Source: an uncultured bacterium (GTDB lineage Bacteria; Patescibacteriota; Minisyncoccia; Phycocordibacterales; GWA1-40-21). Taken from it: 64,000 nt of DNA. Where the stretch lies: NCBI GenBank assembly GCA_903831305.1, contig CAIKXE010000004.1, positions 9,026 through 73,025 on the forward strand, in the 5' to 3' direction. Position 1 is the first letter of the stretch. Every line of letters starts with the position of its first letter. Shown in pieces: positions 7,392-46,861 of the stretch. The notes beneath the pieces were generated by a model that saw nothing but the letters and a program-made list of their open reading frames with translations, had not been told where the DNA came from and ran no database searches. The position numbers were made by a program, and so were the translations under genes.

Positions 7392-10298
7392 CTAGTTACG
7401 AACACAGCGGACAGAAAAACCATAATCTTTATCATGAGTGCTATTACGCTCAATAGTGGGTAGGCCTGACTCTAATATACGTGACCAGGCCCTGTTATTA
7501 CCATTCGGAGTAGATGACCAGATATAGGCGGCCGAATCCAAAAAGTTAAATCGGCTCGTATTTGTTGAAGGATAACGGTAACCAGACAGAAGAGCCTTAA
7601 ACAGTCCTACCCCTGATTTTAAAGTAGTACCCTCATTTGTTCCGCGATCGCCGGTGGTAGTCGTATCATAAGGAAAATCCGTAGTGCAAGTCCCTGAAGT
7701 ACAAACCGTCCGTTCCAGAGTGGTAAACTCCTCATGAGTAGGGATATGCCAGCCGGCCGGGCAGAGACCTTGGGTCCCGGGTGTCGTTATGCCACACATC
7801 GCCTGAGTCCACTGATATAAACCACCGTCACTGGTACAGTTGCTTTCAGTGTTACTATAACAATATTTTCTGATTGTGGTGCAGGTATTATTTTGATTAC
7901 TAGTAGCTGAAATAATAGTTCCGACATTTATATTTTCCGCCATCCAGCATTGGAGACCAATCAAGTTTATAGCGTAAGATTTGCCGTCTCTCGTATCCAA
8001 GGTAGTTCCACTACAATTTTCTAGCCAAACAGCGTATAAGGTACTACTAGATACACCCATGCTATATGTCCCCGTATCAGGATAAGCGATACTTCCTATT
8101 GTACTGGTGGCCCAACCAGCAAAGAAATATCCATCTCTGGTAAAACTGTTAGCAGTCAAACTTGCTTCCTCCCCGGTTACTATTATTTGAGGGGTCATGA
8201 CTCCCGTACCACCATTAGCATTAAAAGAAACAGCCGGACCCAGAGCCACCCACTCGGCATATAGGGTCACATTAGAGGCACCAATAATGAAGGCTGAGGA
8301 AGTGGCACGGCTAGTACCAGTACCATCAAGTGAAGTATTCCAACCAGAAAAATAATAACCGGTCCGAGCCAGATCCTCAGTGTTATCAAGGACCGTCACA
8401 ATATCACCTACTTCATAAGCATTGTGATCTACCGGGACAAAACCTCGAGTGTTACTGTTACCACTATAAGTGACCGTATAAACACTGACTGGGGTATATT
8501 CACTGGGAGTAAAAGCGATTTCTCTTTGTTGCCATGAGCTATTAATATTTATAGTCTCGCTCACGGGCTGATAGTCAGCCTTGGCCAAAGACAAATTATA
8601 ATTACCAGACAAAAGACCAGTAAAGAAAACCTGGCCGGGTGGTACACAGTCCGAGGTAAAGGTAAACGACACATCTGAAACCGTGGGCGTTTTAGTCAGA
8701 TCCGCCGTTTGTAAAAATATTTTATAACGTAAATAGCGGTCTCCATCATGATTTGAGTTTATCTCTTGACTGGTCACCGTATAAAAAGTGTCAGCCGTAC
8801 CATCTGGTCCCTTAAAATTCCAAACTTCACCACCACTATTGGTCGCCACTTGAAGCCGAATACTATCCAATCCCGTCTCCGCTGGCTGATCCTCTGGCTG
8901 CCACGAAATTTTATGAAAATTACTAGCTGACCCCGTATCAAAAGTAGAGGAGATAAGCCAAGTAGAAGTGGCATATTCACCCAAGGTGCTTTTTAGTTTA
9001 ATGGTTCCACCAAAACTAGAAATATCCGCATTACCGTCGGAGTCAAAATATTTGGCCGGATCAGAAAAATGGTCTTGACCAGCTCCACCAGCCCAATCCG
9101 TCTGACGTAAAAAGCCTCGGCCAGTAATGTAGGTCGTATCATACTCTGCCCCGGTCAGATTTACCGCTACCTCAGAAAGAGGCAGCCCCGTGGAAACATC
9201 TTTAACCGTGATAAGCAAGCTCTGCGGACTCTTAGGGCTAAGAATCAGCTTGACGGTCTGGATAGTATCAGGGCTCAAGGTAAAAGTATTGGCCGGAATA
9301 ACCCCAGCCAGATCATAAGTATCATCTGTCGTGGTTAGCTTGTAGGTATCCCAATCTAGGCCGGTGATACTTTCCTCCCCAGCACTATCAGTCGTAAATA
9401 AATCATCAAATTTGTAAATGTCCACTCCAATCAGTTTTTCACCGTGCAAAGAAAAATCAAAATTTGGCACAACCAAACAAGTATCACTGACGCTTGATAT
9501 CTGGAGAGTACTGGCTTTATCTATAAAAAAACTAATTTGGGTCAATTGTTGGAGACTGACCGTGGCATGGGTTTTGACCGGGTTTGGGTTAGCTGGCTCG
9601 CCGACGGGATATGTCCGCTCGGTAGTATAACCATCTTTAGAAACCGTTATCTCATAGACCTGTACCCCGGGTGGGGCATCCACAATCTGTAGCAAACCAT
9701 CATTATTAGTCACATCATCAATGACAAAGCTTGGCACAACACTATTATTTTCCACGTGGACGGAAGCACCCGGTAAGGGCACGCCATTGGCATCAAAAAC
9801 CTTGATAAACAAGGCGCCGTTAGTGGAAGCACTTTCCAGATTTTTAGGACCAATATAAGTAGTCACATTTATCGGAGGGAAATTACGGCATAAAGCACAG
9901 GTTATCTCTAATTCGGCTAATTTATAATCCGCTGGTGAGGTATCATTGACCATTCCACCGAGCTCCCCGTCAAAGGGGTCATCAATGTTTCTGATAGTTG
10001 TTATAACGACAAATTCCTTACCGTCACGAATCAAAGTCTGAGTATAAGGGATCTTGCCGGGGGGCAGGCCTCCAGCGATACCGACATCAGCATAAGGCAG
10101 ATTCCGCATTATTTCAAACTGTTCATTGGCCAAAGCAGTAGCGGTCACTTTTATACGCGAAACCCGTATTACGTCCATTGCTAATTTGTAACCCTGATAA
10201 ACAGAGAGCGCCAAAATAACAAAAATAGCACTACCAACTAAGACCTCTACCAAAGTCATCCCTTTATTTTTTACTCTAAAAAAATTTAACTTGAACAT
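7392..10298 (-). CDS. Pseudopilin/pilin N-terminal domain protein with B-repeat and a C-terminal Fibrobacter-succinogenes-major-paralogous (FISUMP) domain; putative pilus-displayed adhesin
   Basis: 968 aa. N-terminus KNKGMTLVEVLVGSAIFVILALSV is a prepilin-type leader. YSGNSNTRGFVPVDHNAYEVGDIVTVLDNTEDLARTGYYFSGWN is a Listeria-Bacteroides repeat. The C-terminus CWMAENINVG...DGGLYQW...CPAGWHIPTHEEFTTL...YRY...YIWSST matches the FISUMP consensus. Confidence 0.65.
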   Translation of the reverse strand: MFKLNFFRVKNKGMTLVEVLVGSAIFVILALSVYQGYKLAMDVIRVSRIKVTATALANEQFEIMRNLPYADVGIAGGLPPGKIPYTQTLIRDGKEFVVITTIRNIDDPFDGELGGMVNDTSPADYKLAELEITCALCRNFPPINVTTYIGPKNLESASTNGALFIKVFDANGVPLPGASVHVENNSVVPSFVIDDVTNNDGLLQIVDAPPGVQVYEITVSKDGYTTERTYPVGEPANPNPVKTHATVSLQQLTQISFFIDKASTLQISSVSDTCLVVPNFDFSLHGEKLIGVDIYKFDDLFTTDSAGEESITGLDWDTYKLTTTDDTYDLAGVIPANTFTLSPDTIQTVKLILSPKSPQSLLITVKDVSTGLPLSEVAVNLTGAEYDTTYITGRGFLRQTDWAGGAGQDHFSDPAKYFDSDGNADISSFGGTIKLKSTLGEYATSTWLISSTFDTGSASNFHKISWQPEDQPAETGLDSIRLQVATNSGGEVWNFKGPDGTADTFYTVTSQEINSNHDGDRYLRYKIFLQTADLTKTPTVSDVSFTFTSDCVPPGQVFFTGLLSGNYNLSLAKADYQPVSETININSSWQQREIAFTPSEYTPVSVYTVTYSGNSNTRGFVPVDHNAYEVGDIVTVLDNTEDLARTGYYFSGWNTSLDGTGTSRATSSAFIIGASNVTLYAEWVALGPAVSFNANGGTGVMTPQIIVTGEEASLTANSFTRDGYFFAGWATSTIGSIAYPDTGTYSMGVSSSTLYAVWLENCSGTTLDTRDGKSYAINLIGLQCWMAENINVGTIISATSNQNNTCTTIRKYCYSNTESNCTSDGGLYQWTQAMCGITTPGTQGLCPAGWHIPTHEEFTTLERTVCTSGTCTTDFPYDTTTTGDRGTNEGTTLKSGVGLFKALLSGYRYPSTNTSRFNFLDSAAYIWSSTPNGNNRAWSRILESGLPTIERNSTHDKDYGFSVRCVRN

Positions 10299-41140: not shown

Positions 41141-41143
41141 GGA

Positions 41144-41236
41144 AAAAGCCCAGAATTGTTTGATTTTAAAATGTCTGGCCCTAGTCTGCGACGGGAGATC
41201 CGAGGACTTTTAAAATTAAATAATTCTGGGCTTTTT
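41144..41236 (+). repeat. Family A miniature palindromic element, copy 3, nested in the loop of the cca terminator stem
   Basis: aaaagcccagaatt | gtttgattttaaaatgtctggccctagtctgcgacgggagatccgaggacttttaaaattaaat | aattctgggctttttat. The outer 14-bp stem plus T-tract looks like an intrinsic terminator. Confidence 0.7.
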
Positions 41237-41249
41237 ATACATAATATTT

Positions 41250-41320
41250 AAAATCCCCAGGAAAATCCTCTCCGCTTAACGTCAGAACTAATCGCTCCGA
41301 GGAAATTCCTGGGGATTTTA
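41250..41320 (+). other. Hairpin with the family E conserved loop core
   Basis: aaaatccccagg...cctggggatttt is the stem. The loop ctccgcttaacgtcagaactaatcgctccgagg carries the same 22-nt core as the loop at 30125-30160. Confidence 0.55.
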
Positions 41321-41797
41321 TGAAATCAAAAAACCGCCCCTCAGTGTTTTCTTAGTCGGTAAGAAGACGTTTTGGAACGGTTTTGAAGCCGGTTCCTTTT
41401 GTTTTTGTTGGTACCGTACTTCACGATATGTGTGACATTGATCAGATGTCATTTTTTACTTAAAGAACTGATATTTTCTTCAACACTTTTGGCTGGAGAT
41501 ATTTTGCCGCTTGTGTTGGTCTGGTATTATTATATTCTTTATAAAAGACATGTAAAGGACAGACCTGTGGATAACTTTTTATTCTGTCCTTTATAACGGA
41601 CAACCACCAAAACGAGAGAAGCAAAAAATGTTGTCTTTCATTTGATCCTTATTTTATATTATATTTTTGATATTTAAATTACTCTTGACTTATATCTTAC
41701 ACTATGCCATATTGTTTTACAGAACGTTTTTCATGACTGCTCTCTACGAGCGGGTGGAAACGAAAAGTGTCCTTTCAATGAAAGAGGTCAGGGAAAA

Positions 41798-42082
41798 ATG
41801 AGTAAGGATGTTGTCAAGAAGTTTGAGGAGATCGTCGCCACGACCAGTCCCCGAGTTCGCTTCCGGATCAATAACCACGGCTTGGAAAATGGCGACTTTT
41901 ACCTTTTCCTGTGGAAAGTTGCAACAAGAAGAGAAGAGGCCGTCTTCCTGAGGGATGACGACAAGGTGACCCTCTGCCGTCTGGCTGAACGGCTGGCTGA
42001 AATGCTCGGCAAAGATCTGAGGAACGTCAGCCTCGACCGGGGCTATGAACTAACATATAACCTCCTCACTCCCAAGAAATAG
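41798..42082 (+). CDS. Hypothetical small protein (94 aa), first cassette-like ORF; about 52% GC
   Basis: SD-like ggtcagggaaaaATG. Its GC is elevated relative to neighbours. It is followed by a family D element. Confidence 0.4.
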   Translation: MSKDVVKKFEEIVATTSPRVRFRINNHGLENGDFYLFLWKVATRREEAVFLRDDDKVTLCRLAERLAEMLGKDLRNVSLDRGYELTYNLLTPKK

Positions 42083-42096
42083 GGAGCGGGGGGCTT

Positions 42097-42195
42097 TCCG
42101 CTATGATGGCGGACGCGAGTGGGAGAACGCGTGAGTTTCTCCCCTTTATTCAGTGCAAGATCTAAATCGTGCCTTGATAGAGAAAAACTATTTAT
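42097..42195 (+). repeat. Family D conserved element, copy 1 (about 95 nt; TATAAT-like box, then hairpin gggagaa..ttctccc and T-tract)
   Basis: ccgctatgatggcggacgcgagtgggagaacgcgtgagtttctcccctttattcagtgcaagatctaaatcgtgccttgatagagaaaaactattt. It is about 90% identical to 44442-44538, and a partial copy lies at 43621-43680. Confidence 0.75.
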
Positions 42196-42989
42196 TCTTT
42201 GATCCTTGATTTTTCTATAAGCTCATCACTTTGTTTTTCTGACATTTTCCAAGTGTACTCAAAAAATATTTTAAAAGTCTCCGCTATATTTTTATTCTCA
42301 ATAATCGTAGTAAATAAATTATCCTTGTAGGATGTGATTCCCACTTTATCACCGTAAATAAGTATCTGGGCGGGGACATTAAACTGCTCCCATGGAACCC
42401 AGCACCTAGTTACACTATTATTCTTATCATTTTGGGAAATATGAGATAAAGACATATTTTTTGCTGGAGAAATAACTCTAGTTTTTATACCCTTTTTTAC
42501 TTGCTTCTCAATTTGAGAAGCAACCAAATCCTTGAGCTCAAGTGTATCGTCATCCATGGGAGACCTAATTAACCTAATATCTTGAGTCTCAAAAAGTATA
42601 TCTTCATAAAGTTTATTCAAACCATCCTTACCTTCAAAAAAACGAACATTAGGCTTGCCTGAGAAAAAGTTATATTCAGAAACCAAACTACCAATAATAT
42701 TTTCGATTGAATTTTTGGCGAGCTTAGCCTCCTTTTGTTTCTTTTCAACTAGTTCTAGTATTTTTGAGGGATGAAGGCAGGTAAAAAGGGCAATCTTTGA
42801 AATTCTTTCATTTTTTTCAATCAGACCAAGAGTTACAAGGTCATCCAACACCTTGTAAGCAAGACCACGTTTCAGACCAGCCGAAATAGCTACCTTTCTA
42901 GCAGGCATAAAACCGCCTTTTAATAAAACTTGATAAACATTTGCCTGATCCTTTGTCAGGCCTGATTGAATTAAAAATTGCTCATACAT
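42192..42989 (-). CDS. TrmB-like winged-helix transcriptional regulator (about 33% GC)
   Basis: The N-terminal wHTH QANVYQVLLKGGFMPARKVAISAGLKRGLAYKVLDDLVTLGLIEK resembles the TrmB N-domain. 265 aa. Confidence 0.55.
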   Translation of the reverse strand: MYEQFLIQSGLTKDQANVYQVLLKGGFMPARKVAISAGLKRGLAYKVLDDLVTLGLIEKNERISKIALFTCLHPSKILELVEKKQKEAKLAKNSIENIIGSLVSEYNFFSGKPNVRFFEGKDGLNKLYEDILFETQDIRLIRSPMDDDTLELKDLVASQIEKQVKKGIKTRVISPAKNMSLSHISQNDKNNSVTRCWVPWEQFNVPAQILIYGDKVGITSYKDNLFTTIIENKNIAETFKIFFEYTWKMSEKQSDELIEKSRIKE

Positions 42990-43220
42990 GCAAGTATAAT
43001 ACTAAATTAAAACAGATTTGTCATGTATTAATGACGAAAATAGACTATTCTATATGTACTTTTTATTGTATTATCAAGATTTTATAACAATATTTGACAT
43101 ACCCTACTTATTGGGTTGACATTTATGGTAGGTATGCTAAGATTGTATCAGAAGGTTAGATCCTCGAAAGAAGATAGTGGCTTTATGTAGGTGTGCCAAT
43201 GAACACCAGAGGAGAGAGAT

Positions 43221-43604
43221 ATGAAGTTCGTATTCGTCATGCAACACGTGCCGACAACTGAGCAGTTGTCGGCGGCCGGAGCCGAGGGGCGGGAAGTCGT
43301 TCAGCTGGCCGACAAGAAGTTGTTGGCCGTGCCGGACGACGCATCCCTCGGGCGCGACTGGTTCACCACTCGCGCCGCCGAGATCTTGGCCGCGGTCGGT
43401 GGGCTCCAGGAGGGGGACACTCTCCACGTCATGGGTCAGCAGCAGCTGGCCATGGTGGTCTCGGCGATGGGACGCAAGGCCGGGGCGACACTCGTCGAGA
43501 GTGTCACACCTCGCACCTCTAAGGAGGTGACTCAGCCCGACGGGTCCGTGAGGAAGGAGAGTGTTTTCTCCTTCGCGGGGTTCCGCACAGTCCACCAGTA
43601 CTGA
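43221..43604 (+). CDS. Hypothetical protein encoded by a high-GC (about 63%) segment; probable foreign origin
   Basis: SD gaggagagagat precedes the ATG. GC3-rich codons (gtc, gcc, ggc, ctc), unlike the rest of the window. A partial family D element follows on the same strand. Confidence 0.45.
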   Translation: MKFVFVMQHVPTTEQLSAAGAEGREVVQLADKKLLAVPDDASLGRDWFTTRAAEILAAVGGLQEGDTLHVMGQQQLAMVVSAMGRKAGATLVESVTPRTSKEVTQPDGSVRKESVFSFAGFRTVHQY

Positions 43605-43620
43605 CCGACTGGTGAAAATG

Positions 43621-43680
43621 CCGGTATAATGCCGGCCGTTAAGGGAGAACGCGTAAGTTTCTCCTCTGTCCTCCGCTAAG
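43621..43680 (+). repeat. Family D element, partial or divergent copy
   Basis: ccggtataatgccggccgttaagggagaacgcgtaagtttctcctc. It shares the tataatg.cgg box and the gggagaacgcgt.agtttctcc hairpin. Confidence 0.6.
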
Positions 43681-43764
43681 CGGGGCTGATGAGACTTCCA
43701 TTACAATCTCGTTTGAGGTTGGTGGTAAGACGAAACAGATGTTCTTTGAGAGAAGAGAGATACC

Positions 43765-43881
43765 ATGACAACAAATGATTGGATTCAGATAACCCAGGAA
43801 GTAACAAAGGTACTCCATTTGGTAATGGGACCATTCGCAATCGCGTATTGGCTTTCCGTTGCGCTTAGGAAAAAACCATAA
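43765..43881 (+). CDS. Possible small hydrophobic peptide (38 aa)
   Basis: gagagaagagagataccATG gives MTTNDWIQITQEVTKVLHLVMGPFAIAYWLSVALRKKP. It is below the ORF-track size cutoff. It is weakly supported. Confidence 0.2.
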   Translation: MTTNDWIQITQEVTKVLHLVMGPFAIAYWLSVALRKKP

Positions 43882-44028
43882 ACGAGAGGAGGTGATGCGT
43901 GGAGTTGAGGGACTCCAAATTAAAACCCTCCTGTTCCACGAGTGTGTACTTGTGCTGATGAGTCCAAGAGGACGAAAACAGAGTTCTTTGTTAAAAATTT
44001 CCAGATAATATAGAGGGGGGGATAGGAT

Positions 44029-44370
44029 ATGTGGAACAATGAAGAGCGGTTAACATGTGTTAATGGCGGGGCCAGTTGGGGTCCGGCGACCGTTAAGGCG
44101 GACTTTGGCACCTGGGAAGACCAGTGGGCAACTCTCGGAATTTCCCATGGTCAAGTTTTGACCCTTACCCAAAAAGAAAAGCTAGAGGAATTCAGGAGTG
44201 GGTATATGGGAGATTTTTCAGGCATTCAATTCAAAGCGGAAGAGGGGCGGGTAACACCCGAACTTCTGGCGCTATGGGCCGAGTTAGCTAGAATTGTCCA
44301 AAAAACGGAAAAGAGTTGCAAGCAGGCAACTCAAGATGAACATTATAGGAGGTTTGGTATTAGAATTTGA
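44029..44370 (+). CDS. Hypothetical small protein (113 aa), third cassette-like ORF
   Basis: SD agagggggggataggatATG. It is followed by family D copy 3. Confidence 0.4.
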   Translation: MWNNEERLTCVNGGASWGPATVKADFGTWEDQWATLGISHGQVLTLTQKEKLEEFRSGYMGDFSGIQFKAEEGRVTPELLALWAELARIVQKTEKSCKQATQDEHYRRFGIRI

Positions 44371-44441
44371 AAATACAGTTTTTGTCCCCGTTTGCACTAT
44401 AAGCAAATGGAGAGTCCAGAGGAAGCAGAGCCTCTCAAATT

Positions 44442-44538
44442 CCGCTATAATGACGGACGCAGATGGGAGAACGCGTGAGTTTCTCCCCTTTATTCAGTGC
44501 AGGATCTAAATCATGCTTTGATAGAGGAAAACTATTTT
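44442..44538 (+). repeat. Family D conserved element, copy 3
   Basis: ccgctataatgacggacgcagatgggagaacgcgtgagtttctcccctttattcagtgcaggatctaaatcatgctttgatagaggaaaactatttt. It overlaps the 3' end of the convergent xthA. Confidence 0.75.
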
Positions 44539-45296
44539 AACTCCAGCATCACCGGACAGTGATCACTGCCGAGCATATTGTCCAGAATTTCCGCCCGTTT
44601 CAAGACGGGGAGGAGATCAGGAGAGATGAAAAAATAATCCAACCGCCAACCCACATTCCGCTCCCGAGCAAAAGTCTTCATGTCCCACCAGCTATATTTT
44701 ACTTGCTCCGGATGCAAAGTTCTAAACGTATCTAAATAACCCTTACTGATGACTTTATCCAGCCAATCCCGCTCAATTCGGAGGAAACCAGTGTGATTGG
44801 AATTCTCTTTTGGTCGAGACAAATCTATTTCATTGTGCGCGGTATTTATATCACCGCAAAAAATAACTTTTTTATCTGACTTTCTCAACTTTTCTATAAA
44901 AATCAAAAATTGCTCGTAAAATTCTAATTTATATTTCAACCGCTCCGGATCCACCCCACCGTTTGGAAAGTAACCGTTTAAAAGCACAAAATCCTGGAAA
45001 TAAGCGATGATCATCCGCCCCTCCTTATCCAAATCCCCATTACCCAAACTATATTCCACTTTTTCCGGTTTTATTTTACTGAAGATAGCCACCCCGCTAT
45101 AGCCCTGACGCATTTTAGAATGATCAAAATAAGCGTGATACCCAGCCGGGTTTTTTACTTCCTCCGGTAGCTGATCTGGATGAGCTTTAGTTTCCTGCAA
45201 ACAAAAAATATCTGGATCCAGCTCAAAAATACTATTGAAAGCACCTTTCTTATAAAAAGCCCGGAGACCATTTACGTTCCAAGATATTAATTTCAT
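44532..45296 (-). CDS. xthA: Exodeoxyribonuclease III (AP endonuclease)
   Basis: MKLISWNVNGLRA...CLQETK...SGVAI...GDINTAHNEIDL...GSDHCPV is the ExoIII/EEP signature. Confidence 0.9.
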   Translation of the reverse strand: MKLISWNVNGLRAFYKKGAFNSIFELDPDIFCLQETKAHPDQLPEEVKNPAGYHAYFDHSKMRQGYSGVAIFSKIKPEKVEYSLGNGDLDKEGRMIIAYFQDFVLLNGYFPNGGVDPERLKYKLEFYEQFLIFIEKLRKSDKKVIFCGDINTAHNEIDLSRPKENSNHTGFLRIERDWLDKVISKGYLDTFRTLHPEQVKYSWWDMKTFARERNVGWRLDYFFISPDLLPVLKRAEILDNMLGSDHCPVMLELK

Positions 45297-45368: not shown

Positions 45369-45722
45369 CTACTTTAAAAAAGTAAAAAGTTTACCAATAA
45401 CTGGCAATGGTTCCATTTTTCTTTCTAAAACATTTTTAATACCGATAATTAAGAGGGCGAGTATGGCAATATTCCAAATTCCTTTAAACCAAGTCAGTAT
45501 TGAGAGCCAAAATGGTAAATAATCCACTCCAAAATTACCGACAATAGCAACCAGCAACAAAATTATTCCCTGATTGATATGATAATTTAAAAATGAGGAA
45601 CGATTCTTCACCGCGAATAGGGGAATAAGAAATAAAATGTAAGCCAGTATGCCCCATAACTTATCATTATCAATCTGGTGATCAGGATTTACCGCTGGCA
45701 TTTGTTGATTTGAATTATCCAT
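45369..45722 (-). CDS. DUF4870-like small membrane protein
   Basis: 117 aa. KLWGILAYILFLIPLFAVKN...HINQGIILLL is the typical DUF4870 pattern, with three TM segments. Confidence 0.55.
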   Translation of the reverse strand: MDNSNQQMPAVNPDHQIDNDKLWGILAYILFLIPLFAVKNRSSFLNYHINQGIILLLVAIVGNFGVDYLPFWLSILTWFKGIWNIAILALLIIGIKNVLERKMEPLPVIGKLFTFLK

Positions 45723-45769
45723 AATTTTAAATTATTAAATTAATAATAAAGGTATTATAACATAAAAAC

Positions 45770-45882
45770 GGGATGATAAAATAATATGATTTTGGAGGCT
45801 TCACAGCCGGGTAGGCGAGAGAGAGCAAATTTTCAGCAGAAAATTATGCGCACTCCAAAAATTATACTATTTTATCATCCCC
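45770..45882 (-). repeat. Family B conserved structured element, copy 2
   Basis: gggatgataaaataatat | gattttggaggcttcacagccgggtaggcgagagagagcaaattttcagcagaaaattatgcgcactccaaaaatt | atactattttatcatccc. The core is in reverse orientation, with copy-specific 18-bp flanks. Confidence 0.75.
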
Positions 45883-45883
45883 C

Positions 45884-46831
45884 TTAACTCTTATTATGAA
45901 ACTTTTTGTGAATGTCACGGAGATGCTTATCCGTCACATGAGTGTAGATCTGCGTGGTGATAATACTGGAGTGGCCAAGCATGGTCTGGACCGAGCGAAT
46001 ATCCGCCCCATTGCTCAGTAAATCTGTAGCAAAGACGTGCCGGATGACGTGCGGGGTGACTTTTTTAGTAATACCCGCAATAGTGGCATAACGTTTGACT
46101 ATCCTTTCCACGGACCGGCCGGTCAGAGCGGTGACCTTCCCAGAGATGGATTGCTCCCGGTTCTTATCAATCGTCACAAATAATGCTTCAGACAAATCTT
46201 TACGTACCGCCAAGTAATCCCGGATGGCTTTCTTGGCATCATCAGACAGGAAAACCACGCGCACTTTTCCTCCCTTACCGCGAATAGAAAATTCATCCAA
46301 ATTCAAATCTAAATCCGTGGTCAAAGAACAAAGCTCAGATACACGTAAACCAGTAGAAAAAAGTAACTCCAAAAGTGCTTTATCTCGCGCTCGGCGCTCC
46401 AGATTTTGCTCTTGATTCGGCGCTTCAAGCAAGCGCTGTAATTCTTGGAGGGAAATCAGATCAATGGATCGCTCGCCGACTTTAGCGAGCTCGATATTGT
46501 CTGCTGGCAGGGAAGTGACGCCTCGGCGCGCCAAAAATTTCAGAAAGACGCGCAAAGCAATCAGGTAATAGTTTTGCGTCTTCTTGGCCATGGTGCCACC
46601 GGCCCGCGCTGGTGTACCAAACAAGTGGTAGGCCTTGGCTCCCGGCCGGCGGTTCAGCCAAATGCGGAATTCGCGGATTTTCTCATTGGTGATGTCCTTG
46701 GGATCCGTGATTTTAGTCTGCTCCAGGAAAAAAGTCAGATACCGGTCATAGCGGTCAATGGTTTTCAGGGCTCGGCCTTTTTCTATTTCCAAATATTCCA
46801 AAAATTGAGTTTTATATTCCTTGATATTCAT
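45884..46831 (-). CDS. Xer-like tyrosine site-specific recombinase
   Basis: An N-terminal SAM-like core-binding domain (MNIKEYKTQFLEYLEIEKG). The catalytic domain has R (LRVSEL), H.R (HVIRHVFAT) and LGHSSIITTQIYTHV (catalytic Y). The start is at the internal Met of the track ORF. Confidence 0.8.
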   Translation of the reverse strand: MNIKEYKTQFLEYLEIEKGRALKTIDRYDRYLTFFLEQTKITDPKDITNEKIREFRIWLNRRPGAKAYHLFGTPARAGGTMAKKTQNYYLIALRVFLKFLARRGVTSLPADNIELAKVGERSIDLISLQELQRLLEAPNQEQNLERRARDKALLELLFSTGLRVSELCSLTTDLDLNLDEFSIRGKGGKVRVVFLSDDAKKAIRDYLAVRKDLSEALFVTIDKNREQSISGKVTALTGRSVERIVKRYATIAGITKKVTPHVIRHVFATDLLSNGADIRSVQTMLGHSSIITTQIYTHVTDKHLRDIHKKFHNKS

Positions 46832-46861
46832 GTCGTACAATATTATACACCACCTCGTCAT

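Follow-up and report, generated by a model that had tools for sequence, protein, structure and literature searches.

Within a 64-kb window from the genome of an uncultured patescibacterium (contig CAIKXE010000004.1; the window is the whole stretch analysed), a segment carries three small open reading frames (ORFs) on the plus strand, ORF1 (41798–42082), ORF2 (43221–43604) and ORF3 (44029–44370), each with a copy of a structured element, here called D, downstream of it. The three ORFs and the repeat had been recognized in an initial annotation made from the sequence alone, and the ORFs lie where that annotation placed them. Read from left to right, the segment consists of ORF1, the first D copy (D1), a TrmB-like regulator gene on the minus strand, ORF2 (an MJ1673-type gene), the hairpins P0 and P1 of a second copy (D2) joined to a hammerhead ribozyme motif (HH1), a small ORF, a second hammerhead (HH2), ORF3, the third copy (D3) and the gene xthA, which is convergent with D3. 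D is best read as an element of conserved structure whose action is at the level of the transcript and which, jointly with type III hammerheads, delimits small, mostly orphan genes on the same strand. Comparison loci and contigs outside the window are denoted by L-numbers (L007, L142 and so on).

Element D and the hammerhead motifs

Folding and alignment resolve D into three hairpins: P0, which is small; P1, with the stem GGGAGAA/UUCUCCC; and P2, which follows P1 directly and is formed by CUUUAUUCAG, a 20-nt top and UUGAUAGAG, the base CUUUAUUCAG/UUGAUAGAG being near-invariant. Across copies in general, P0 is often present ahead of P1. All copies in the window are on the plus strand. In D1, the minimum-free-energy fold places P0 (UCCGC-UAUGAUG-GCGGA) at 42097–42113; then come P1 (GGGAGAA...UUCUCCC, 42121–42143), which is terminator-like with CUUUAUU directly after it, and P2 (42144–42182), with the conserved base CUUUAUUCAG/UUGAUAGAG, one bulged U and a variable top. 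D3 (44441–44526) is organized in the same way, with P0 at 44441–44457, P1 at 44465–44487 and P2 at 44488–44526. Over 98 nt, D1 (42096–42193) and D3 (44440–44537) are 91% identical and reach the stop codons of the convergent TrmB-like and xthA genes (the latter at 44532–44534), in agreement with the roughly 90% identity and the overlap with convergent gene ends reported initially. D2 (43620–43664), by contrast, has P0 (43620–43636) and P1 (43643–43664) only; it shares about 50 nt with the other two copies, and its 3′ half is a canonical type III hammerhead that begins at the site of the missing P2. The description of one element of about 95 nt after every ORF thus holds for D1 and D3, but not for D2. 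The stem of P0 varies in sequence among copies yet pairs (GCCGG/CCGGC in D2), and what had been taken for a separate ‘tataatg(a/c)cgg box’ is in fact the loop and 3′ arm of this hairpin. Similarly, the ‘T-tract’ CUUUAUUC after P1 is the 5′ strand of P2.

The core sequence GGGAGAACGCGTRAGTTTCTCC occurs at exactly three sites in the window (42121, 43643 and 44465), compared with none in 100 shuffles. In the whole window, the covariance model of D recovers two copies alone, D1 with 55.9 bits and D3 with 55.3; the next-best match scores 12 bits. The possibility raised at the outset that D is a generic terminator scattered behind unrelated genes is not borne out here, with two full copies in 64 kb and both at this locus.

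Two type III hammerheads lie on the plus strand of the segment. HH1 (43665–43739), recognized from sequence and fold, abuts P1 of D2. Its stem III is UCUGU/ACAGA, its CUGAUGA is at 43686–43692 and its GAAA at 43732–43735, and it has a long stem II, a subtype also found in the hammerhead of L013; C17 is at 43670, and cleavage is predicted between 43670 and 43671. HH1 has every core position together with the pairs G10.1–C11.1, C1.1–G2.1 and A15.1–U16.1, and an A.A mismatch at 10.2/11.2. HH2 (43931–43981), a compact hammerhead upstream of ORF3 identified with a strict descriptor and by folding, has stem III CUGUU/AACAG, a stem I of 8 bp and stem II GUCC-AAGA-GGAC, with C17 at 43936 and predicted cleavage between 43936 and 43937. 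Type III hammerheads were defined by a CUGANGA ... GAA core, the A15.1–U16.1 pair, an H17 other than G and three stems with core-adjacent pairs; both motifs have this core and these stems, and self-cleavage is predicted for each. Neither hammerhead, nor hairpin P2, figured in the initial reading of the segment.

HH2 passes the strict type III descriptor, which yields 0.05 matches per shuffle set. Across 272 kb of D-bearing loci the same search gave seven matches, against 0.05 in shuffles, and all seven share the strand of the D copies in their own locus. The Rfam model RF00008 scores HH2 at 17.9 bits, below its gathering threshold of 48.5, and does not report HH1; a descriptor-found hammerhead in L010 is likewise not reported by Rfam at E values up to 1. 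Because a hairpin lies directly against stem III in six of the eight hammerheads examined, as P1 lies against P2, we regard P2 and the hammerhead as positional alternatives within one bipartite module. At orthologous positions, D2 in the window is P0-P1-hammerhead and L172 has P0-P1-P2.

Between HH1 and HH2 lies a 38-amino-acid ORF (43765–43881, plus strand), a stop-free translation with a hydrophobic stretch, a Shine–Dalgarno sequence before its start and no assigned family. The two predicted cleavages would release an RNA of about 266 nt (43671–43936) containing this ORF, and such an RNA would carry a 5′-OH and a 2′,3′-cyclic phosphate and therefore could be circularized. The long stem II of HH1 (CUUCCAUUACA...GGUUGGUGGUAAGAC, 43692–43733) is 81% identical to part of a leader in L143 (615–655), which lacks CUGAUGA and GAAAC and therefore looks like a hammerhead relic. 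A 3′ untranslated region module common to L092 (4450–4570, minus strand) and L213 (740–850, minus strand) contains CUGGUUAAGAUGAGUAAACAUCUUGAAAAC, which resembles a hammerhead whose core departs from the consensus and may be an inactive relative.

Distribution, covariation and novelty of D

The pattern CTTTATTCAG-N14-34-TTGATAGAG, representing P2, was searched for in one genome per species of bacteria and archaea. Its 113 genome matches are roughly the number expected by chance, and most of them, like most of 88 metagenome matches, were discarded as chance matches within coding DNA of unrelated organisms, with neither P1 nor P2 pairing. Fifteen copies in 12 genomes also have an abutting P1 and a paired P2 top, and all 12 of these genomes belong to the candidate phyla radiation (CPR): Saccharibacteria, Paceibacterota, Kaiserbacteria, Moraniibacteriota and ‘Patescibacteria group’. 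Further copies came from metagenome contigs, and a covariance model (R1) identified 69 copies in 30 CPR loci (208 kb). Viral contigs of IMG/VR, scanned with the P1 sequence and the P2 pattern, contained no true D copy. Within the searches made here, D is found only in CPR bacteria.

Conservation of P2 and of its base of about 19 near-invariant nucleotides (CUUUAU(U)CAG/UUGAUAGAG) extends from Saccharibacteria to Paceibacterota, Kaiserbacteria and Moraniibacteriota. In copies with one to three substitutions, no change seen among the six outer pairs of this base breaks pairing, and seven are double compensatory changes; C8:G3′ becomes G:C, A9:U2′ becomes G:C, C1:G9′ becomes G:C or U:A, and U2:A8′ becomes C:G or A:U. 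The central UAUU/AUA is read as an internal loop because its positions vary without compensation. Among 47 distinct D copies, a set selected for P1 and some P2-top pairing but not for pairing of the base helix, 95.2% of P2 hairpin cells pair, compared with 83.6% in shuffles and 39–46% in slid registers, and 11 of 16 pairs change on both sides. G.U pairs occupy 146 of 752 cells. Pairing drops from 95.2% on the sense strand to 75.8% on the complement, and the fold weakens from −14.3 to −5.5 kcal/mol, the sense strand being the more stable in 46 of 47 copies; owing to the G.U pairs, the P2 hairpin is valid on the sense strand only.

No Rfam family overlaps D1, D2 or D3 at E values up to 10, and none matches D at the gathering threshold across 14 related loci. 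Full-text literature queried for the motif sequence, for hammerhead or self-cleaving RNAs of CPR bacteria or Patescibacteria and for MJ1673 contained no description of the element. Relative to Rfam 15 and the literature searched, D is a new RNA motif.

Two other readings of its sequence were tried and dropped. The resemblance of UUGAUAGAG to CUGAUGAG had suggested a degenerate hammerhead, but GAUAGAG covaries with CUUUAUU as the strand of a helix. TTGATA could be taken as a −35 box, with the −10 box in GTTCTTTAAA; as a general reading this fails, with many copies only 8–15 nt before a start codon and with the compensatory changes also altering the supposed box. In AT-rich lineages (L021, L092, L213, L144, L163 and L174), a box GUUCUUUAAA, with variants GGUUCUUUUAAAA and AUUGUUCUGUAAAU, lies about 3–6 nt past P2, and longer P2 variants, such as CCAUUUUUCAAAUCAG...CUGAUUUGAAAGUAGG, occur in L092 and L213.

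Genes, composition and turnover at D-bearing loci

Across the 69 copies in 30 CPR loci, D lies on the strand of its adjacent genes. Most copies lie between two ORFs of the same strand, the upstream one ending and the downstream one starting no more than about 150 nt away; the start is often only 8–70 nt from D, and its Shine–Dalgarno sequence often lies directly past P2. Arrays of co-oriented ORFs punctuated by D are present in L021, L034, L064, L013 and L092, with five copies in 2 kb between unrelated small genes in L021. The proteins of at least 90 amino acids encoded next to D are mostly without a Pfam match (31 of 34), and all 34 are mutually unrelated except for members of the MJ1673 family; D-adjacent ORFs average 4.6 GC points above their own loci. 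Of the 30 D loci outside the window, 8 have an MJ1673-like gene and 10 a TrmB-like gene next to the D array. One D-punctuated array, in L007, includes at 8278–9026 a DUF3800 gene followed by a DUF3800-IX RNA (46.2 bits, above gathering, on the opposite strand), and D arrays are therefore linked to DUF3800-associated RNA motifs. Directly past the MJ1673 stop codon, L007 (6455–6545) and L009 (6400–6490) share another conserved structured element, in which CCUAUAGG-GAUAG-CCUAUAGG covaries with CCCAGAGG-GAUAG-CCUCUGG and is followed by UUGCGACAAAAUUCCUCC...GGAGGGACAAGCYGGUCGYG; it has no Rfam match.

In the window, ORF1 (94 amino acids) has no family match and two known relatives only (83% and 68% identity); it has a promoter-like site of its own at 41685–41713, and its leader is conserved in L142 and L143. 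ORF3 (113 amino acids) is an orphan: a set of 1.8 billion representative proteins contains no homologue of it beyond its own species. For ORF1, ORF3, the 38-amino-acid ORF and a 202-amino-acid ORF of L143, there was no match in Pfam, PHROGs, NCBIfam or PADLOC. The TrmB-like winged-helix regulator (42192–42989, minus strand, stop codon 42192–42194) is divergent from ORF2, which is preceded by a promoter-like site (TTGACA-16-TAAGAT) and leader at 43116–43220 on the plus strand. A leader hairpin of ORF2, GGUGUGCCAAUGAACACC, recurs in L172 and before an unrelated ORF in L143. Upstream of the ORF2 Shine–Dalgarno sequence, the conserved leader (43150–43220) has the hairpin GGUGUGCC-AAUGA-ACACC; the same leader lies at L172 1–90, before the MJ1673 gene, and at L143 660–716, before the unrelated 202-amino-acid ORF. 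Because it is common to these unrelated genes, the promoter plus leader appears to be a portable module as well.

ORF2 encodes a stand-alone MJ1673/Csx20-like protein of 127 amino acids. A PF27247 (MJ1673) match is on record for it and for 74 of 75 homologues; it scores 24.8 bits against the NCBIfam Csx20 model, below the cutoff of 70, and E = 6.7e-06 against that of PADLOC. Its AlphaFold2 model, with a confidence (pLDDT) of 95, resembles CARF and SAVED proteins, including the ring nuclease Sso2081, and on this model ORF2 has a CARF-like Rossmann fold. Csx20 degrades cyclic tetra-adenylate (bioRxiv 10.1101/2024.09.24.614671), and ring nucleases of the Csx20/MJ1673 type belong to type III CRISPR loci (bioRxiv 10.1101/2024.09.24.614671; PMC3973734). 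The PF27247 match, the weak Csx20 matches and the CARF/SAVED-like model align ORF2 with these enzymes, making it a candidate cyclic-oligoadenylate ring nuclease. It differs from them in having a TrmB-like partner, in scoring under the curated Csx20 cutoff and in lacking cas genes: no Cas Pfam families occur within about 10 kb on each side, where the neighbours have core functions. The pairing of such a CARF protein with a TrmB-like regulator away from any CRISPR locus suggests that these episymbionts use cyclic-oligonucleotide signalling, or counter it.

The compositional heterogeneity noted initially is confirmed. ORF2 has a GC content of 64% (63–68% in 200-nt windows) and a GC content at third codon positions (GC3) of 0.83, compared with 51% and 0.64 for ORF1, 34% and 0.30 for the TrmB-like gene, and 42% and 0.41 ± 0.05 for the 35 long ORFs of the window, which itself has 42% GC. 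The proposed acquisition of ORF2 from a high-GC donor finds no support. Its orthologues in four other lineages (L007, L009, L010 and L172) have GC3 values of 0.70–0.79, in loci of 40–44% GC for the first three and on a 1.2-kb contig of 49% GC for L172; because the orthologues are GC3-rich in every lineage checked, a recent import is unsupported. The homologues of ORF1 and the 202-amino-acid ORF of L143 are GC3-rich as well. Across lineages, the MJ1673-like gene maintains a GC3 of 0.70–0.83 next to a TrmB-like gene with a GC3 of 0.30. The contrast may stem from a common pool of cassettes that has a composition of its own, from codon selection or from GC-biased conversion at a recombining locus.

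A comparison of the locus among relatives, which the initial annotation had proposed as a check on cassette turnover, shows that gene content differs, albeit on short contigs. L142 has ORF1, a single D and xthA, with flanks 80–86% identical to the window and without the 2.3-kb interior from D1 to D3. L172 has the leader, the MJ1673 gene, P0-P1-P2 and xthA, and lacks the hammerheads, the small ORF and ORF3. In L143, ORF1 and a D copy are followed by the ORF2-type promoter and leader, here driving the unrelated GC-rich 202-amino-acid ORF, and by another D. Together with the window, these relatives of ORF1 and ORF2 represent four states of one chromosomal site. In a different lineage, flanks 95–99% identical between L092 and L213 surround replaced ORFs: a 127-amino-acid ORF, D and a 93-amino-acid ORF in L092 correspond to a single unrelated 107-amino-acid ORF in L213, with one break just past a D copy and the other just past an ORF stop codon, about 600 nt from the next D. 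Co-oriented, unrelated ORFs, each with its repeat, thus vary in content among relatives, and the description of the segment as mosaic and cassette-like stands, with D copies at the edges of variable content in L142, L172 and L143.

Other repeats lie around the segment. The 650-nt gap between the gene for the CCA-adding enzyme and ORF1 contains two long, near-perfect inverted repeats, at 41143–41236 (29 nt, 93%) and 41249–41320 (22 nt, 91%), which are probably terminators. To the right, an ORF for a 117-amino-acid membrane protein (45369–45722, minus strand) and a Xer-type recombinase gene are separated by a 40-nt inverted repeat (45754–45897) with arms that are 78% complementary and 64 nt apart; it lies past the 5′ end of the former and overlaps the stop codon at the 3′ end of the latter. 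In many assemblies of this species, contigs of 0.6–4 kb (L003–L006 and L233–L238) result from breaks in or beside the locus, which may reflect repeats or strain variation.

Proposed gene boundaries, rival explanations and known systems

We propose, with moderate confidence, that D and the hammerheads are gene boundaries at the RNA level and that recombination at these repeated modules swaps genes. The proposal is supported by the structure of D, its strand and its position relative to genes, its co-occurrence and positional equivalence with hammerheads, and its coincidence with the breaks of gene replacement. At each boundary, the transcript would be ended or cut. At a hammerhead, the RNA would cut itself, leaving a 5′-OH and a stem I hairpin; at P2, the agent would probably be a host RNase specific for double strands or for sequence. 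The message upstream would then have its 3′ end capped by P1, and the gene that follows would begin from a defined, structured 5′ end. The outcome would be expression of each gene that is independent of upstream content and insulated from context, a role already proposed for clustered hammerheads of prophages (PMC3088659). The modules may also provide portable homology through which genes are gained, lost or replaced. Because the same modules flank unrelated genes, recombination between them could delete, insert or replace genes, and we take it to be homologous because the arrays have no dedicated recombinase. Such recombination would give rise to the cassette-like mosaic and leave D1 and D3 as direct repeats on either side of the block of TrmB, Csx20-like, hammerhead and ORF3 sequences. 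The invariant base of P2 is most likely recognized by a specific nuclease or binding protein, self-cleavage being the alternative. That all this amounts to an integrase-independent cassette system of CPR bacteria, in which P1 plus the CUUUAUUCAG/UUGAUAGAG hairpin is interchangeable with a hammerhead, is self-cleaving or a nuclease target, and provides both insulation and portable homology by which orphan genes move between genomes, is a tentative idea that we consider rather doubtful.

Several observations weigh against the proposed gene boundaries. It is not obvious why a simple hairpin with a single internal loop should need 19 near-invariant nucleotides across CPR phyla, which implies a specific partner or catalysis. 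If P1 ended transcription efficiently, P2 would rarely be reached. In the window, D1 and D3 close transcription units beside convergent genes instead of separating co-oriented ones, and the covariation set was chosen in part for the pairing of P1 and the P2 top. The presence and absence alleles come from short metagenome contigs, and the junction in L142 might be an artefact of an assembly that collapsed over the D repeat. A search for variation within the species found only the arrangement of the window: among 15 same-species contigs with ORF1 none was listed as rearranged, and all 10 places shown had a TrmB-like ORF after ORF1.

The initial annotation likened the segment to cassettes of integrons or of CALINs (clusters of attC sites lacking an integron integrase) and, alternatively, took the D repeats for attL and attR. 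An attC-like D, in arrays served by a tyrosine recombinase encoded elsewhere, would account for the co-oriented, unrelated and mostly orphan ORFs, each with an imperfect hairpin behind it whose base is conserved, whose top varies and which has a single extrahelical base, for relatives that differ in genes with D at the edges, and for the heterogeneous GC of the cassettes. We nevertheless judge it improbable. The only recombinase near the window locus (45884–46861) is, as first annotated, Xer-like; it scores 234.6 bits as XerD and 220.2 bits as XerC, but 111 bits as an integron integrase, for which the cutoff is 265, and in the DNA fetched none of the 30 D-bearing loci of other CPR genomes has a flanking tyrosine recombinase. 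The attC core, RYYYAAC (R″) and GTTRRRY (R′), is absent, the base being CTTTATTCAG/TTGATAGAG in 47 copies, which agrees with the initial failure to see a canonical GTTRRRY. attC sites recombine as a folded bottom strand and have hairpins of 57–141 nt, whereas the D hairpin measures 37–41 nt and, one bulged U aside, is restricted by its G.U pairs to the sense strand, with antisense pairing of 76%. Hammerheads replace P2 at equivalent sites, and a break between L092 and L213 lies far from the next D, just past a stop codon. With no IntI, no attC core and no bottom-strand fold, integron or CALIN membership does not hold up. It is very unlikely, too, that D1 and D3 are the attL and attR of a 2.3-kb islet (TrmB, the Csx20-like gene, the hammerheads and ORF3) integrated by the neighbouring Xer-type recombinase, even though 98-nt direct repeats of 91% identity bracket the segment, L142 lacks it and has a single D at the junction, and the recombinase is only 1.3 kb away. 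That enzyme is XerC/D by score and sits among core genes, beside rpsO; elsewhere D lies between nearly every gene of an array, with no integrases. The TrmB and MJ1673 pair, moreover, lies near RNase Y in L007, L010 and the window, and near HU and the CCA-adding enzyme gene in L010 and the window; its position near like core genes in distant relatives therefore suggests long residence rather than recent insertion. Attachment sites are unneeded, as a deletion between two D copies explains L142 equally well.

The remaining alternatives concern what D itself does. A mere intrinsic terminator, or a repeat of the repetitive extragenic palindromic (REP) kind in an incidental mosaic, would agree with the stable P1 hairpin, the CUUUAUU next to it and the way in which D1 and D3 close transcription units beside convergent genes. 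Yet the two full copies in the window, both at this locus, contrast with the many dispersed copies of REP sequences and bacterial interspersed mosaic elements (BIMEs), P2 and its 19-nt base are kept across CPR phyla with compensatory changes, and a Shine–Dalgarno sequence and start codon of a co-oriented gene lie past most copies; we find this account improbable. P2, or P1 with P2, could instead be a small self-cleaving ribozyme of a new class that substitutes for the hammerhead. D takes the place of the hammerhead after P1, arrays hold both, the near-invariant nucleotides include the uncompensated internal loop UAUU/AUA, Rfam has no such family, and earlier ribozyme classes were discovered by searches near known ribozymes (PMC5737381). 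D consists, though, of two simple adjacent hairpins with no evidence of the pseudoknot or multi-helix junction that known small ribozymes use; the P1 and P2 loops have, by inspection, no conserved complementarity; and candidates from similar contexts, such as DUF3800-I, failed to cleave when tested (PMC5737381). We regard a new ribozyme as distinctly improbable. Least convincing, with the Xer islet, is a double-stranded DNA operator, CTTTATTCAG...TTGATAGAG, for the co-located TrmB-like regulator. The 10 of 30 loci with a TrmB-like gene beside D arrays, and the resemblance that an imperfect palindrome with covarying half-sites can have to a dimeric binding site, speak for it. The arms, however, are anywhere from 18 to 26 nt apart, and the sequence between them also forms covarying pairs, the arm asymmetries are exactly those that give G.U on one strand, copies lie past genes rather than at promoters, and 20 of the 30 loci show no TrmB gene, though many are short contigs.

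CPR genomes are tiny, and how accessory genes are gained and expressed in them is poorly understood. Backed by covariation, D is a concrete candidate for a new structured RNA; if the gene-boundary proposal is true, a boundary RNA that alternates with self-cleaving ribozymes at replacement breaks would be a new organization of a flexible gene pool, without an integron integrase. D arrays resemble integron cassettes and CALINs in their co-oriented, small, unrelated genes, the structured repeat after each, their turnover and their heterogeneous composition. They differ in having no IntI and no R″/R′ core, in a shorter, sense-strand hairpin, in some cassette promoters, in hammerheads at equivalent positions and in a turnover that we ascribe to homologous recombination. 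Intercistronic RNase III sites of phage T7 and synthetic ribozyme insulators of the RiboJ type cut transcripts, leave hairpin-protected ends and insulate genes. Like D, they place conserved internal-loop hairpins, or a hammerhead and a hairpin, between genes; D is conserved across phyla rather than within one genome and is preceded by a terminator-like hairpin, and its cleavage is a prediction.

The DUF3800-associated, drum and skipping-rope RNA motifs are conserved, without assigned function and often combined with terminators (Weinberg et al. 2017, PMC5737381). D is similar as a conserved structured RNA, and the L007 array brings it together with a DUF3800 gene and RNA, but it matches none of these Rfam families and is not tied to one protein family. 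Finally, clustered hammerheads in prophages flank single genes and cut polycistronic RNA in vitro (PMC3088659), and they have been proposed to break long transcripts up into one mRNA per gene (Perreault et al. 2011, PMC3088659). In both cases several hammerheads on one strand bracket individual, variable and often hypothetical genes, the parallel in the window being the two type III hammerheads around the 38-amino-acid ORF, ahead of ORF3. Here, by contrast, the hammerheads alternate with a second, non-hammerhead motif, and the setting is a CPR chromosome among core genes, with no linked phage genes or integrase and no copy in IMG/VR. Accessory gene arrays punctuated by ribozymes are already known; RNA motif D is the new part.

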